DNA of 64,000 bases from Alphaproteobacteria bacterium (GTDB taxonomy: Bacteria > Pseudomonadota > Alphaproteobacteria > Rs-D84). Positions 5,886-33,003 of the stretch are shown one piece after another. Position numbers and translations under genes: made by a program. The stretch lies in the NCBI GenBank assembly GCA_031549365.1, contig JAVBPX010000001.1:64001-128000 (forward strand), given 5' to 3'. The notes beneath the pieces are model-generated. The model made no database searches. It was given only the letters and a program-made list of their open reading frames with translations, and was not told the DNA's origin. Position 1 is the stretch's first letter; each line of letters begins with the position of its first letter.

Positions 5886-7658
5886 CTATCCCTTCTTGCG
5901 AATTTGGATGTGCAATTCACGCAATTGTTGTTCGGAAACTTCAACTGGAGCGCCCAACATTAAATCTTGGCCACGTTGGTTGGTTGGAAATAAAACAACT
6001 TCACGTAAATTTGGTTCACGACATGCCATGCAAACCAAACGATCAATTCCAAATGCACATCCGGCATGTTGCGGCGCACCATATTGGAACGCAGTCCACA
6101 TACCGCCGAATTTTTTGCGAACAACTTCGGCATCGTATCCGGCAATTTCGAATGCTTTGACCATAATTTCTGGTTTATAATTACGCAATCCGCCCGAACA
6201 AATTTCCGCACCGTTTAAAACCATGTCATATTGGAATGCTTTTATTTCCAGTGGGTTTTGGTTTAACAATGCATCCAATCCGCCCTGGGGCATTGAAAAT
6301 GGATTGTGCGAAAATGCGACCTTGCCTGTTTCTTCGTCCAATTCATAGAATGGAAAATCAACAATCCAGCAAAATTTATAATCGTTTTCATCAATCAATT
6401 TTAAATCTTCGCCCAATCTGATTCGGATTTTACCAGCTGCCTTGGCGGCAATGTCTTTTTTCTCGCATACGAAAAATACAGCATCGCCCTTGGCAACTCC
6501 GGTTGTTTTCATAATTGATTCAATTTCTGATTCCGATAATGATTTTGCGATTGGTCCTTTGACCTCGTCCGCGAATGCCAAATATCCCAATCCACGCAAT
6601 CCGATTTCTTTGGCAAATTCGCCCATTTTATCGAACCACGAACGCGCCATACCTCCCGCAGTTGGTGCTGGGATTGCACGAACAACCGAGCCTTCTTTCA
6701 CTGCGTCTGCAAATAATGAAAATGCGGATTTTGCAAACACATCTGATACATCCGAAATGATAATTGGGTTACGCAAATCTGGTTTATCAATACCGTATTT
6801 TTCAATTGCTTCCATATATGGAATGCGTGGAATGTTTGAATCAACCGTACATTTGCCATCTGTGAATATTTTCATCATTTCTGGGATTAATGCTTCACCA
6901 ACTGCAAAAACATCTTCTTGTTCCACAAAAGACATTTCCATATCCAATTGATAAAATTCCAATAAACGATCCGCACGCAAATCTTCGTCACGAAAACAAG
7001 GCGCAATTTGGAAATAACGATCAAATCCAGAAATTTGAATCAATTGTTTATATTGTTGAGGCGCCTGAGGCAAAGCATAAAACATCCCATGATGTAAACG
7101 ACTTGGTACCAAGAAATCGCGAGCACCTTCGGGACTGGATGTTGTTAAAATCGGGGTTTGAAATTCTTGGAATCCCAAATCCCACATTTTATCACGCATC
7201 CATTTAATCATGTGATTGCGTTTTGTAATATTTTTTTGTAGTTTTTCACGACGTAAATCAATGTATCGATATTGAATACGTAAATCTTCTGGAAATTTTT
7301 CGTCGCCAGCAACCTGAATTGGCAAAACCTCTGCCATTGATTGAACGCGGTATTCGCTGACGGAAACTTCAATCTCACCAGTTTTTAATTTTGGATTTAT
7401 AACGGACACATCACGCGCAACAACGTTACCAATAACTGTAATCACAGATTCGTTATGAATTTTTTCCAAATCGCGTAATGCTTCATTTGATAAATCAACA
7501 ACACACTGAGTCATTCCATAATGGTCGCGTAAATCAATAAACAATAATGATCCGTGATCCCGTTTTTTATGCACCCAACCGGATAACGTTACAACCGTTC
7601 CGACCTGCGCCTTGGTCAATTCTCCACAAGTATGGGTTCTGAACTGATTTGCTCTCAT
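5886..7658 (-). CDS. aspS: Aspartate--tRNA(Asp/Asn) ligase, predicted non-discriminating
   Basis: RTHTCG, RDHG (His typical of ND-AspRS), PEGARDF, LPQAPQ, FRDED, GIDRL; ATG 7658 follows SD AAGGTG. Confidence 0.97.
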   Translation of the reverse strand: MRANQFRTHTCGELTKAQVGTVVTLSGWVHKKRDHGSLLFIDLRDHYGMTQCVVDLSNEALRDLEKIHNESVITVIGNVVARDVSVINPKLKTGEIEVSVSEYRVQSMAEVLPIQVAGDEKFPEDLRIQYRYIDLRREKLQKNITKRNHMIKWMRDKMWDLGFQEFQTPILTTSSPEGARDFLVPSRLHHGMFYALPQAPQQYKQLIQISGFDRYFQIAPCFRDEDLRADRLLEFYQLDMEMSFVEQEDVFAVGEALIPEMMKIFTDGKCTVDSNIPRIPYMEAIEKYGIDKPDLRNPIIISDVSDVFAKSAFSLFADAVKEGSVVRAIPAPTAGGMARSWFDKMGEFAKEIGLRGLGYLAFADEVKGPIAKSLSESEIESIMKTTGVAKGDAVFFVCEKKDIAAKAAGKIRIRLGEDLKLIDENDYKFCWIVDFPFYELDEETGKVAFSHNPFSMPQGGLDALLNQNPLEIKAFQYDMVLNGAEICSGGLRNYKPEIMVKAFEIAGYDAEVVRKKFGGMWTAFQYGAPQHAGCAFGIDRLVCMACREPNLREVVLFPTNQRGQDLMLGAPVEVSEQQLRELHIQIRKKG

Positions 7659-7683
7659 ATTTTTCACCTTTTTGCTTTTGATA

Positions 7684-7729
7684 TTTGTTAAAACAAGAAT
7701 AATTATAAATTATTTCCTGTTTTAACAAA
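7684..7729. repeat. TTGTTAA-ended palindromic repeat inside the aspS 5' leader
   Basis: TTTGTTAAAACA-AGAATAATTATAAATTATTTCC-TGTTTTAACAAA. Confidence 0.7.
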
Positions 7730-7800
7730 AACAGAAACAATCACAATGCTTTCAAATTTTGATTTTATGCACCGAATCATTTCTGATTGTTAAATCCTCT

Positions 7801-7944
7801 GCAAGGACGTCTTTCAAACGCGGTGCCACCTTGCTTCGTGCTGGAATACCAACACCTTGATCAAACGTATCGTGTTCAAACGGCGGGTTCTAATCGGATT
7901 AACCTTTCTTCCCGCATGCTCACCGGTGTTTGCCGGGTCAATGC
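7801..7944 (-). ncRNA. T-box riboswitch, ultrashort Stem I (ileS/class II-like architecture), Asn (AAC) specifier
   Basis: Minus strand: K-turn/Stem I GCATTGACCCGG-CAAACA-CCGGTGAGC; Stem II GCGGGAAGAA...TTAGAACCCGC; IIA/B pseudoknot CGT-TTGAAC-ACG...GTTTGA; Stem III GTGTTGG-TATT-CCAGCAC; T-box domain GCAAGG-TGGCACC-GCGTT-TGAAA-GACGT-CCTTGC. Confidence 0.9.
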
Positions 7945-7954
7945 AACTGATCCT

Positions 7955-7983
7955 ATTCTGTTACCAATATTAAAAAAAATCAA
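7955..7983 (-). promoter_or_regulatory. Putative sigma70 promoter of the T-box/aspS transcript
   Basis: TTGATT-17 nt-CAGAAT on - strand, ending about 10 nt before Stem I. Confidence 0.5.
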
Positions 7984-8002
7984 GAAAAATATTTTTATTC
8001 CA

Positions 8003-8033
8003 CAAATAAACCCCGGTTTCCCAGGGTTATTTG
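8003..8033 (-). terminator. Intrinsic terminator of gyrB
   Basis: CAAATAACCCTGG-GAAA-CCGGGGTTTATTTG on - strand just after the gyrB stop. Confidence 0.7.
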
Positions 8034-8040
8034 ACTTGAA

Positions 8041-10482
<2,442 letters not shown>

Positions 10483-16279: not shown

Positions 16280-17908
16280 TTAATTCAGCGGAGCTCCCCA
16301 ATTCTGCATCATTGCACGTTCAGGATCCAATGGTGATACCAAAACCTGTGGCGTGATGATAACAACCAACACGTCGCGTTGCGATGTTGTTTCACGGCTT
16401 CCGCCCAACGCCATAAATTCAGGATCTCCGATTCCGAATCGAGTGTCGTTATTTGTGATTCGTTCAAACCCTGACAGCACCAACGTCTGACCCGATTCCA
16501 TAACAACTTCTTGCATGAAAGATCTTTCTTCGGTTTCTGGCAACTGCAATGTAACAGATCCAATCGTAGTCGTTGACATTTTCAACAATCCTTTGATTGA
16601 CATTTTGAATAACAACAATATACGACCGTTATCCAAAACATTTGGCATTAATTGCATGCTGAACCCTGTATCCAATTCAGCCTGATCCACCGTGGCGGCT
16701 TCAACTGCTGAAAAATTTCTGGTTTCAAACTGTTTAATGTATCCTGTTGTTTTCATATTGCTGACTGGGGCAATACGATTATTTCTGGTTGTAACAACAG
16801 CACTGGTTACCAATGAAATTTTTCCTTGTTTTGCCAACGCTTGGATAAACGCATCTGTCCCGGCCAAATTACCCAATCCGGATGCAGCAATCTGATCCGC
16901 GGTAAATCCACCAGTAACAACACCTGACGAATCAACGGCTGCCAACCCAGCTTTTGCCAATACATTATTATTTAACACCGCAATATTCATACCCTGGGCT
17001 TCAGTAGTGGTTAAATTGTTGACAGGATTTGAAACCAATTGCAGTCCCGCAGCCGATTGAATCGCTGCGCCCAAATTCAAACCCAGAGCATTTGAATTAT
17101 CGATTGAAACTTGCAATACTTTTACGTTAATTGCGATCAGCTGAGACAAACGTTGATTTTGTTTATTTATGTAATCGCCAACGCGTTGCAAAATTGATGG
17201 GGGCGCTGTCACAGTAATTGAACCCATTGATCTGGACACTGTGAATTTCGCATTTTGGGTCCCTTCTAAAATTCCACCAATTGTTTTTTCAACCTCTTCC
17301 CATTCACGCAAGTTTGATTCCAATGACACATGATTGGCGTCATCGGCGGCAATTCTGGAACGATAATTAATGTCTGTTCCCAATGCAAACAAAGTAAATG
17401 TTTTTGTTTCTGTTTCATAAAAGACAATTTCTTCACGATCATAATACCACAACAAATCCAAATCTGTTGCGATTTGGGTCAACAATGTCGATAATTTTCC
17501 AGTATATGCAATATTCATTGCCTTACTTAATTTATCAGCACTTATTTTGCTGTCGATTTTAACTGGAATATCAGTCATCGCATGAATGTTATTTGATAAA
17601 ACTTGTAATGTAACAGGTTCGTTTAATAATAACGTAACCCCGTTTTCACCTTCGAATTCAGATGGCAAATTATTTTTATGAGGCAAAACTACCGAAGCAG
17701 ATCCCAACCAAACACCTTCGGACATTGAAATAGTATCATTCGTTGCCTTGGAACGTGGATTTTTTGCGTCTTCCAGCGCACTGTTTGCATTCAAAAAGTC
17801 GTTATCAACTTGCGTTGCAACCTGTGCAGATTCTTTTTTTGCACATCCGGTTAAAATTGACCCAATTACAGCCAATATCAACCCATAACGTTTAATATCC
17901 ATTCCCAT
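16280..17908 (-). CDS. PilN-like lipoprotein secretin
   Basis: Lipobox ILTGC; secretin C-terminus QLPETEERSFMQEVVMESGQTLVLSGFE...VVIITP. Confidence 0.9.
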   Translation of the reverse strand: MGMDIKRYGLILAVIGSILTGCAKKESAQVATQVDNDFLNANSALEDAKNPRSKATNDTISMSEGVWLGSASVVLPHKNNLPSEFEGENGVTLLLNEPVTLQVLSNNIHAMTDIPVKIDSKISADKLSKAMNIAYTGKLSTLLTQIATDLDLLWYYDREEIVFYETETKTFTLFALGTDINYRSRIAADDANHVSLESNLREWEEVEKTIGGILEGTQNAKFTVSRSMGSITVTAPPSILQRVGDYINKQNQRLSQLIAINVKVLQVSIDNSNALGLNLGAAIQSAAGLQLVSNPVNNLTTTEAQGMNIAVLNNNVLAKAGLAAVDSSGVVTGGFTADQIAASGLGNLAGTDAFIQALAKQGKISLVTSAVVTTRNNRIAPVSNMKTTGYIKQFETRNFSAVEAATVDQAELDTGFSMQLMPNVLDNGRILLLFKMSIKGLLKMSTTTIGSVTLQLPETEERSFMQEVVMESGQTLVLSGFERITNNDTRFGIGDPEFMALGGSRETTSQRDVLVVIITPQVLVSPLDPERAMMQNWGAPLN

Positions 17909-26993: not shown

Positions 26994-27437
26994 TTATATC
27001 AGCCCCACCAATAAGCATTCATACATAGCCCGATAAATAGAGGCGTATTTTTTAACAGGGGACAACGTCATTACATCCAACATCCAAACAACGCCCGATG
27101 AATCAACCGCGAACCAAAATAAACCATTACGTCCAATTACCGTTTTTCCGCGTAATACCTTGTATGCCATTAATTCTTTGTTTACTGTAATTATACTGGG
27201 CAATATATACATCCGGCCATCGCGATTATATTCAGTAACACCAAATATCTGTGCATCCCCACAAATAATTCCATCATGCCGCATATAAAAGCGCATTAAA
27301 TCCATTGGCAACATTGCACACTGCATTTGCATTAACGAACCCTGGGCAATCTCAATTGCGCGTTCTGATGCCGCCGGCAACATGATCGCAACATCTTTTT
27401 TATTTTGTAATTCTTTTAAAAATTCTTCATGGTTCAT
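26994..27437 (-). CDS. SMI1/KNR4 (SUKH)-like protein
   Basis: PAASE..I......LP.D...FY..HDG....IFG pattern. Confidence 0.7.
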   Translation of the reverse strand: MNHEEFLKELQNKKDVAIMLPAASERAIEIAQGSLMQMQCAMLPMDLMRFYMRHDGIICGDAQIFGVTEYNRDGRMYILPSIITVNKELMAYKVLRGKTVIGRNGLFWFAVDSSGVVWMLDVMTLSPVKKYASIYRAMYECLLVGLI

Positions 27438-31017: not shown

Positions 31018-31302
31018 TTAATCTTCGTTATTCATTTTTTTTGCTAAATCCGTTCCCATTTTGAAATGCACAGATTTTTTGGCAGGCACAGCAATCATTT
31101 CCCCAGTTTTTGGATTATACCCAATCCTGGTTGCCAATTTACGAGGGGAAAAAGAACCAAATCTTCTTATCTCAACCCTGTGGCCTTCGGAAATTTTTTG
31201 CATAACTTCGGATAACACAGTATCAACAATTGCTGTTGCTTCGGTTAATTCCATTCTTGGGTACCTTACCTGAACGGATCTGATCAAATCTGATCTCTTC
31301 AT
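31018..31302 (-). CDS. ihfB: Integration host factor beta / HU-family protein
   Basis: MKRSDLI, RVEIRRFGSF, NPKTGE, VHFK. Confidence 0.8.
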   Translation of the reverse strand: MKRSDLIRSVQVRYPRMELTEATAIVDTVLSEVMQKISEGHRVEIRRFGSFSPRKLATRIGYNPKTGEMIAVPAKKSVHFKMGTDLAKKMNNED

Positions 31303-31365
31303 AATATCTTACTCCTTGTAACTTGGGATGATATAATGGCCTAAAACTTCTAAAAATTCAAGTTG

Positions 31366-32202: not shown

Positions 32203-32274
32203 GGCCTCATTTTATCATAAAATGCTTTTAAATGCACGTTGATATTGTCCCTTAATTCTGATAATATTACAGGC

Positions 32275-33003
32275 ATGAATACATTTGATTTCACTAAAAC
32301 TTTGGCAGAAATAAAACCTTTGCTCAACCTTTGCTGTTGGACCAGCGAGGATTCATCAACTCTGATACATGCCGCCACGGCCGCGGTTGAAAATAATGTT
32401 AAACTATTATCGGTCGAACCTGTATCAATACCATTGGTCTGGAGTTGGACTGAAAAAACACCATTAAAATTATATGCTTTTATGGCCGCTGATTTTAACA
32501 AACAGGATGAAAAAAAATTAATATCTGATATGAATATCCCATTAAAACGTGGCGCTTCTGGAATTCAGATTTATACACCTGTTAATTCATTTGAATCTTT
32601 GGTAAACGCTTTGCTGCCTATTCGCCACGATTTGTTTTTTGGACGAGATCTAACAATCGCTTTGCCATTGGACAATATTACACCGAACCAATGGCCAATG
32701 ATATTTCAATATTTATCCAAATTGGATGTTTCACGATTATTATTAATTGCGTCAAAACCATTGGCCGTTGCGCAACATATATATGGCCTGCTTTCGGTAA
32801 TACCTGCACACACAAATTGGTCATTGGATGTATGTGTAACGTCATCTAAAAATGCGATAAAACCAATCGAAGATACATTTCGTTTAACACAAAAAATGGC
32901 GCCATGGATATTGGACCAAAACAAATTGCATTTTTTCGTCCAACCATCTTTCTTTCAAAATTACCCACGGGATACACAATATGATGATGCGGATCTGGAC
33001 TAG
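32275..33003 (+). CDS. Hypothetical protein, possibly degenerate DeoC-like aldolase fold
   Basis: L...A..A.....LLSVEP..I, ...LKRGASGIQI pattern; catalytic KTSTG motif absent. Confidence 0.5.
   Translation: MNTFDFTKTLAEIKPLLNLCCWTSEDSSTLIHAATAAVENNVKLLSVEPVSIPLVWSWTEKTPLKLYAFMAADFNKQDEKKLISDMNIPLKRGASGIQIYTPVNSFESLVNALLPIRHDLFFGRDLTIALPLDNITPNQWPMIFQYLSKLDVSRLLLIASKPLAVAQHIYGLLSVIPAHTNWSLDVCVTSSKNAIKPIEDTFRLTQKMAPWILDQNKLHFFVQPSFFQNYPRDTQYDDADLD

Follow-up and report, generated by a model that had tools for sequence, protein, structure and literature searches.

An ultrashort-Stem-I T-box upstream of aspS, very probably reading tRNA-Asn, in a small genome labelled alphaproteobacterial

T-boxes are textbook Gram-positive regulators, and the locus described here raises the question of what an element with the anatomy of a T-box is doing in front of the aspartyl-tRNA synthetase gene (aspS) of a bacterium assigned to the Alphaproteobacteria. 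The stretch of DNA that was analysed, hereafter the window, comprises 64,000 nt of contig JAVBPX010000001.1 (positions 64,001-128,000, forward strand) in assembly GCA_031549365.1, and coordinates are those of the window unless a locus or contig name precedes them. We found that the 380-nt spacer between gyrB and aspS, both of which are encoded on the minus strand, holds an ultrashort-Stem-I T-box whose specifier is located in the terminal loop. Taken as a whole, the explanation that we consider rather probable is a functional T-box in the aspS leader that senses tRNA-Asn, most likely with a translational output.

The elements were traced on the minus strand between 7944 and 7801 in the following order:

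7944-7918, minus strand: Stem I, with a 2-bp base, a GA/GA kink-turn (K-turn), a 4-bp helix and a 6-nt terminal loop CAAACA (7932-7927); from the sequence, the RF00230 match and covariation
7930-7927, minus strand: specifier AAC (Asn) at 7930-7928, followed by the conserved purine A7927; from the loop register common to relatives
7915-7883, minus strand: Stem II, with the purine-rich internal loop AAGAA/UUAGAA (S-turn region); from the RF00230 match and covariation
7882-7864, minus strand: Stem IIA hairpin (7882-7871) and the IIB pseudoknot partner GUU (7866-7864); from the sequence and covariation
7855-7838, minus strand: Stem III, 7 bp, with the loop UAUU; from the sequence and the RF00230 match
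7834-7801, minus strand: discriminator (antisequestrator), with helices A1 and A2 and the 7-nt bulge UGGCACC at 7828-7822; from covariation, -11.3 kcal/mol

Every element named in the original prediction (Stem I, Stem II, IIA/B, Stem III and the discriminator) sits on this strand exactly where it had been placed. As is characteristic of T-boxes, the base of Stem I carries a K-turn, the specifier triplet is followed by a purine, and A1 and A2 are joined by a 7-nt bulge of the UGGNACC form. The short Stem I with its terminal-loop specifier, which has no elbow-binding platform, is a mark of the ultrashort class, as is the combination of a Stem II containing an S-turn with a IIA/B pseudoknot, in which GUU (7866-7864) pairs with the loop AAC (7876-7874). 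The earlier description of the T-box as complete holds for the tRNA-reading elements, all of which are present, but not for the output stage, where neither a canonical terminator nor a 3'-strand sequestrator is seen.

An Rfam scan of the window at gathering scores returned zero matches. In a permissive scan of 7600-8100, RF00230 matched 7800-7950 on the minus strand with 51.9 bits (E 1.4e-10), spanning positions 1-219 of the 219 in the model with 72 Stem I positions deleted, and it is because of this deletion that the score falls below the cut-off of 93. The ultrashort Stem I can thus be read both directly from the sequence and from the skipped positions of the match, and the forecast that the standard model would score the element poorly was borne out, even though the match is full-length. 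A scan of the whole genome returned the same site (E 6e-11). RF00230 also gave two weak matches elsewhere in the genome (18.1 and 12.4 bits), both of which were rejected; the stronger of them lies in a coding-like region with no start after it. The element at 7944-7801 is the sole credible T-box in the genome.

Covariation was assessed in an alignment of nine full-type leaders, namely those of the window, five more aspS genes and three aspS2 genes, which come from four families of the order and one further family of the class. Pairing is retained in 98.8% of the cells of this alignment, and 16 of the 28 pairs change on both sides among these kin, values that were reached by 0 of 500 shuffles; when the 3' partners were slid as a control, pairing fell to 37-50%. 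The doubly changed pairs occur in Stem I, where both the base and the upper stem covary (helices 1-2), in the lower helix of Stem II (helix 3; four of five pairs), in the IIB pseudoknot (helix 6), which covaries in the relatives and where the window is offset by one column, and in A1 and A2 of the discriminator (helices 7-8). The consensus structure was drawn from the same nine sequences and is hence favoured, but the number of double changes is still large. Conservation and covariation upstream of aspS extend to the relatives, which supports the original prediction, and we regard the element as almost certainly a genuine T-box.

How widely is this element distributed? At E <= 0.01, RF00230 gave sub-threshold matches in 32 of 61 related genomes, the window's own (G000) included, and no genome among the 61 exceeded the cut-off. 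The genes downstream of 30 matching loci are aspS in 21 cases (58-64% identical to the AspRS of the window over the part compared), an archaeal-type aspartate--tRNA(Asn) ligase in six and an archaeal-type tyrosine--tRNA ligase in three; the two archaeal-type enzymes, named by NCBIfam, have about 435 and 390 amino acids, respectively. A second model, R1, which was built from relatives that have no Stem II, matched 31 of the 61 genomes at E <= 0.001 and gave no match to the window's own element. Combined, the two models reveal T-box matches in 35 of the 61 related small genomes, with 28 of 37 in the window's family (G000 included) and 0 of 11 in one genus. Across the class, with one genome per family and E <= 1e-4, matches were found in 2 of 151 families; the two are the window's genome and one 1.1-Mb genome, which also has an ultrashort AAC T-box on aspS.

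Most of the aspS T-boxes in the window's family are of a Stem-II-less type (e.g., L098:1540-1656 on the plus strand, L092, L102, L107 and L004:2808-2924 on the plus strand; alignment A3) of about 90 nt in all, consisting of an ultrashort Stem I (3-bp helix, 9-nt loop and longer basal helix) and a discriminator, with about 30 AU-rich nt containing a conserved AAAGUUAUAA-like motif instead of Stem II and IIA/B. In Actinobacteria, such an arrangement is said to be a poor binder of tRNA, and reviews treat Stem II as indispensable once Stem I is truncated. A tRNA gene with the anticodon GGU (Thr by anticodon-loop reading) is located directly 5' of the aspS T-box at L095, L104, L106, L102, L112, L109 and L195, and the aspS leader of those relatives may be co-transcribed with the tRNA. 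In genome G017 (78% complete, 2% contamination), two aspS genes of the bacterial type are both preceded by a GAC T-box (L097:1296-1412 on the minus strand, and L194); either one gene is a paralogue of the other or the bin mixes two strains. Near-canonical T-boxes with a long Stem I are found upstream of archaeal-type tyrS in related families (L084 at G044:C19:3851-4083 on the minus strand, L088 and L089), with scores of up to 90.4 bits, a UGGUACC bulge and clear terminators; these may be a trace of the entry of T-boxes into the lineage.

Which tRNA does the leader read? In the usual register, the loop C-A-AAC-A of the window gives the triplet AAC (Asn) followed by a purine, and all relatives that were read show AAC or GAC followed by a purine at the same loop position; by eye, 16 bacterial-type aspS leaders have AAC and 16 have GAC. 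In all three genomes with T-boxes on both types of AspRS (G017, G035 and G026, with the locus pairs L097/L194, L090/L195 and L101/L196), the bacterial-type aspS has GAC and the gene of the archaeal-type, non-discriminating enzyme has AAC, and because the specifier tracks the enzyme type in 3/3 genomes, the loop position behaves as a codon. The genome encodes tRNA-Asn(GUU) and tRNA-Asp(GUC), each of which has G73 and a CCA end that is part of the gene, and G73 of tRNA-Asn matches the fourth bulge base, the C of UGGC, as expected of the cognate tRNA. No asnS over the cut-off was found in the genome (best 87.5 vs 342.6 bits) and no second aspS, both other class IIb matches being lysS. Since neither is present, the single AspRS must also charge tRNA-Asn. 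The downstream gene is tied to the amino acid read, aspS being accompanied by gatA and gatB just past the end of the window. An Asn specifier on aspS makes sense because a non-discriminating AspRS serves both tRNAs, and the leader would then report tRNA-Asn that is not aspartylated. The AAC specifier, the tRNA-Asn(GUU) with G73 and the missing AsnRS all fit the ligand implied by the original prediction, and the leader very probably reads tRNA-Asn.

The anatomy and its covariation, a tRNA that matches, the context of the pathway and conservation throughout the clade are all observed, and from them we infer tRNA binding, the direction of control and a switch from the bulge to the Shine-Dalgarno sequence (SD). 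With the support of Stem II and the IIA/B pseudoknot, the specifier AAC would pair with the anticodon of tRNA-Asn(GUU), and the bulge UGGC would pair with the free 3' GCCA end of the uncharged tRNA. Without AsnRS, Asn-tRNA-Asn would be made by the non-discriminating AspRS together with GatCAB; because this pathway runs through AspRS, uncharged tRNA-Asn would report an AspRS shortage and should therefore switch aspS on. When no tRNA is bound, the 5' half of the T-box (the bulge CACC and the A2 5' strand) would pair with the SD GGUG and the bases before it, the two regions being brought together by two intervening hairpins, and uncharged tRNA would stabilise A1/A2 and so free the SD.

The output stage lies in the 140 nt between the discriminator and the start codon, which contain two hairpins and the following features:

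7808-7794, minus strand: small alternative hairpin GUCCUU (7808-7803)/GAGGAU (7799-7794), formed with the 3' strand of A1 and masking an SD-like GAGGA; from the unconstrained minimum free energy (MFE) fold
7785-7732, minus strand: AU-rich 17-bp hairpin, -15.5 kcal/mol, followed by UUUUUGUU (7731-7724); from folding
7780-7703, minus strand: possible 25-codon upstream open reading frame (ORF; ATG 7780-7778, TAA 7705-7703), 14 nt past GAGGA, which begins in the first leader hairpin; by eye
7729-7684, minus strand: AT-rich perfect hairpin, -17.2 kcal/mol, a member of a dispersed repeat; from folding and repeat copies
7681-7665, minus strand: UCAAA-AGC-AAAAA-GGUG, of which GGUG (7668-7665) is the aspS SD; predicted partner of the T-box sequence CACC-GC-G-UUUGA (7825-7813); from folding

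The hairpin at 7729-7684 belongs to a dispersed family of palindromic repeats of about 40 nt, with copies on G000:C15 near 16673-16712, 27065-27086, 31286-31303 and 32258-32279.

In the unconstrained MFE fold (-45.4 kcal/mol), A1/A2 are open and the T-box at 7825-7813 is paired with the aspS SD region at 7681-7665, the predicted switch pairs being CACC/GGUG and GCGUUUGA/UCAAAAGC. With A1/A2 enforced and the bulge left free, the fold lies 1.4 kcal/mol over the MFE and the SD is open. The SD is about 90% paired in the free ensemble, where the bulge accounts for 3.53 of the 4 units of pair probability, and its bases are 47-89% unpaired when A1/A2 are enforced; when only the spacer was shuffled, the mean was 0.26 and none of 100 shuffles reached the native 3.53. 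Folding thus predicts that the SD is masked in the tRNA-free state via an unusual partner, the bulge.

The leaders of the relatives were folded in the same manner, and in the MFE structures of 33 of them the SD pairs with the bulge in 16, with the 3' strand in seven, with the A2 5' strand in one and with none of these in nine; the seven conventional leaders include three aspS2 leaders with 9-14-bp sequestrators. The GGUG of the aspS ribosome-binding site is extended in many relatives to GGUGCCA or GGUGUCA, like the tRNA 3' end. The corresponding heptamer GGUG[CU][CU]A, which is the complement of UGGCACC with G-U allowed and ends like the tRNA 3' end, is found no more than 20 nt from the start in 13 of the 33 leaders and at 1 of 523 predicted gene starts of a single genome, that of the window. 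A coding origin of the heptamer was rejected, because the GUG shares the reading frame of the ATG in only some of the leaders. Among the long-spacer leaders, seven of nine carry an internal bulge complement that is reached by <5% of dinucleotide shuffles. That of the window, CGGUGC at 7774-7769 (-11.2 kcal/mol with the bulge, shuffle fraction 0.028 in 500 shuffles), is located in the 5' strand of the hairpin 7785-7732. In several long-spacer leaders, blocking the internal complement makes its hairpin partner pair with the SD in a relay-like arrangement.

Several points weigh against the explanation as a whole. The RF00230 score is below the gathering cut-off, and the covariation counts overstate independence, since the relatives are kin. 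The leader of the window contains no canonical terminator or sequestrator that would be mutually exclusive with the antiterminator through its 3' strand, and only the 6-pair hairpin GUCCUU/GAGGAU uses that strand. The closest AspRS sequences are 66% (genome contigs) and 60% (metagenome contigs) identical, too distant for the 140-nt spacer of the window to be compared, and the gene-start background for the heptamer comes from one genome only. Within the SD region of the window, only the 4-nt GGUG is complementary to the bulge, which is at the 41st percentile of the background, and the case for bulge-SD pairing therefore rests on thermodynamic folding. In addition, A1/A2 (-11.3 kcal/mol) forms first in transcription, 140 nt before its predicted competitor, and a constitutive "on" fold may therefore be kinetically favoured. 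On the other side, translational control is expected in an architecture like that of the ultrashort ileS T-boxes because there is no terminator. From the folding and the motif statistics on related sequences, we put translational control through bulge-SD pairing at a little under an even chance. A broader proposal, which we hold still more tentatively, is that the bulge UGGCACC doubles as an anti-SD, so that the ribosome-binding site and uncharged tRNA compete for one site, that in long leaders an internal GGUGC serves as decoy and relay, and that the clade has also evolved Stem-II-less ultrashort T-boxes.

The alternative that survives best is a relic, in which the tRNA-binding domains persist without switching, aspS is expressed constitutively and the leader has been lengthened by inserted hairpins. 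Such a history would suit a reduced genome, a discriminator that is stable alone and a leader without a canonical sequestrator, and the membership of the hairpin 7729-7684 in a dispersed palindromic repeat family suggests insertion. However, the helices, the K-turn, the specifier register and the bulge are all intact and have been kept by compensatory change across families, the specifier follows the enzyme type in relatives, and shuffled spacers did not reproduce the native pairing between SD and bulge (0/100), all of which makes a relic unlikely.

Slightly less likely is a transcription-attenuating T-box, in which the hairpin 7785-7732 and the U-run 7731-7724 would form an intrinsic terminator whose formation is prevented by tRNA. 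A 17-bp hairpin (-15.5 kcal/mol) followed by UUUUUGUU is indeed what such a device would require, and the tyrS T-boxes of related families have clear terminators. However, the hairpin shares no bases with the discriminator's 3' strand, so that the two folds can coexist; the sole link between them is the pairing of CGGUGC with the bulge, through which the hairpin would form when tRNA fills the bulge, the wrong direction for a synthetase gene. The hairpin is also rich in AU and GU and has a loop of 19 nt, which sets it apart from the GC-rich terminator that follows gyrB, and aspS leaders of relatives with spacers of 25-30 nt have no terminator.

A third possibility, and a distinctly improbable one, is that the T-box controls the upstream ORF at 7780-7703 via a 3'-strand sequestrator, GUCCUU/GAGGAU, with translation of the ORF opening the hairpins and being coupled to aspS. 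The small hairpin is present in the unconstrained MFE fold and covers the SD-like GAGGA, and the ORF after the ATG spans both leader hairpins. Yet the spacing from SD to ATG is 14 nt, the hairpin has only six pairs, two of them G-U, and the ATG is buried in the 5' strand of the hairpin 7785-7732; no comparable ORF is found in relatives, the closest of which have an AspRS identity of <= 66%. Chance resemblance or an assembly artefact, which the sub-gathering score and the origin of the genome as a metagenome-assembled bin might suggest, is already refuted on the present data by the genome E-value of 6e-11, the homologous elements at the same place in 21 aspS loci, the identical public DNA-run contig over 5790-8242, the even GC content and skew, and the nearest metagenome-assembled genomes (MAGs) shared by AspRS and GyrB.

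Is the host alphaproteobacterial? The genome of the window is a metagenome-assembled bin of 911 kb (0.91 Mb) in 15 contigs and is 97.6% complete. Its AspRS forms a group (local support 100%) with those of three MAGs that carry the label Alphaproteobacteria or Rickettsiales, in a tree in which 64 of the 80 rows are Alphaproteobacteria, and the nearest relatives of AspRS and of GyrB are the same named MAGs. GyrB is 67% identical to that of the genomes of these MAGs, compared with 56% for Paracoccus, 52% for a Holosporales MAG and 46% (partial) for Victivallis. Five named MAGs so labelled have the T-box motif directly upstream of aspS. No sign of chimerism was seen in the GC content (0.35-0.41) or the GC skew, both even across the window, in the DNA run with its single contig, or in the relatives of AspRS and GyrB. 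The alphaproteobacterial host of the original prediction is thus supported by the two proteins being nearest to MAGs so labelled, but the class itself rests on submitters' labels and on single genes.

Around the T-box, the locus contains the following features:

8041-10449, minus strand: gyrB; from Pfam
8009-8028, minus strand: terminator-like GC-rich hairpin with a T-run, 3' of gyrB; 8 pairs, 5 of them GC
7983-7955, minus strand: promoter-like pair, TTGATT (7983-7978), 17 nt and CAGAAT (7960-7955), ending about 10 nt before Stem I; by eye
5886-7658, minus strand: aspS, bacterial-type aspartyl-tRNA synthetase, with the start ATG at 7658-7656; from Pfam and NCBIfam (NF001750, 783 bits)

The terminator-like hairpin at 8028-8009 marks the aspS leader off as a unit of its own. 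The promoter that had been proposed at 7983-7955 is found there as the pair TTGATT-17 nt-CAGAAT, but the promoter scan listed no site at this position because its score of 8/12 fell under the scan threshold; clearer -35/-10 pairs are found in relatives at the same distance from the T-box. In a public DNA run, which may be the source sample, one contig covers 5790-8242 with zero differences. Contigs of a metatranscriptome run cover 5917-6914, 6893-7496, 7503-7833 and 8215-8942, one and the same contig carrying the aspS start, the SD, the spacer and the discriminator; these contigs show neither ends, strand nor level, the RNA library may contain DNA, and the uncovered 7834-8214 counts as no evidence. 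A second RNA run gave no contig for the region.

Two full-length class II lysS genes are kept in the 0.91-Mb genome (L199:567-2033 and L200:462-1961, both on the minus strand; NF001756, 655 and 596 bits). A tRNA-like cloverleaf is located between a promoter-like site and the start of the second lysS, outside the window (L200:1985-2057 on the minus strand, equal to G000:C14:155784-155856). ARAGORN lists it as "tRNA-?(Lys|Glu)"; its anticodon loop, UUUUCC, is 6 nt long and its D arm is weak, and it may be a tRNA-Lys mimic in the LysRS leader that is used for autoregulation.

The aspS T-box can be compared with several known systems. The Firmicutes transcriptional T-boxes (tyrS, glyQS; RF00230) have the same domain order, K-turn, T-box sequence and NCCA pairing, and they likewise place a synthetase gene under the control of its own substrate tRNA. 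Unlike them, the aspS T-box has no long Stem I, no distal T-loop elbow platform and no terminator overlapping the antiterminator. The aspS element of the Firmicute Clostridium acetobutylicum is a transcriptional T-box with a long Stem I. Its logic is reported to be the same as that proposed here, in that tRNA-Asn charging governs an AspRS serving the GatCAB route. According to a 2008 survey (PMC2494555), one of the three aspS genes of this species is T-box regulated.

The ultrashort ileS T-boxes of Actinobacteria (Mycobacterium, Nocardia), described in a bioRxiv preprint (10.1101/2023.02.28.530422) and in PMC7583486, share the K-turn and short helix, the terminal-loop specifier followed by a purine, the Stem II with an S-turn, the IIA/B pseudoknot, Stem III and the UGGNACC discriminator. 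All known members of the class are said in the preprint to regulate ileS and to answer to tRNA-Ile. In contrast, the leader described here precedes aspS in an alphaproteobacterial host and carries an Asn specifier, which is replaced by an Asp specifier in many relatives. The predicted sequestrator is also different, being the 5' half of the T-box (the bulge) rather than the 3' strand that reviews give for ileS. According to the 2020 review (PMC7583486), translational T-boxes have mostly been identified in Actinobacteria, and tRNA binding is almost lost when Stem I is truncated and Stem II is missing.

Surveys from 2008 and 2013 (PMC2494555; PMC3766115), in the portions available, list T-boxes in Firmicutes, Actinobacteria, Chloroflexi and Deinococcus-Thermus as well as leuA T-boxes in two deltaproteobacteria, with 2 of 125 proteobacterial genomes having a T-box (PMC2494555). 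The leuA T-boxes of Geobacter and Pelobacter, the only proteobacterial cases named in those portions, are described as "typical" T-boxes; they stand on a biosynthetic gene and belong to another class, not the ultrashort one. In TBDB (PMC7778990), the class II model was used for Actinobacteria and for those class I hits whose Stem I is truncated. In agreement with the original prediction, the literature listings and abstracts searched contain no report of a T-box in Alphaproteobacteria, nor under Rickettsiales or Gram-negative bacteria/Proteobacteria, and supplementary tables may list some.

The aspS T-box is new in its host class and in its specificity within the ultrashort class, and probably also in its expression platform. 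Rfam cut-offs and class-restricted searches miss all such elements. A gut-associated alphaproteobacterial clade with genomes of <1.1 Mb that has T-boxes on aspS, archaeal-type AspRS and tyrS widens the known range of the mechanism, and shows that sensing of tRNA charging by RNA is kept even in very small genomes. The clade offers a natural series of leaders whose specifier is Asn or Asp depending on the enzyme, as well as compact variants for structural and synthetic biology, namely the Stem-II-less elements of about 90 nt and a possible output stage in which the bulge acts as an anti-SD. Compared with the actinobacterial ileS T-boxes, it breaks the published rule that ultrashort T-boxes serve only ileS and tRNA-Ile.

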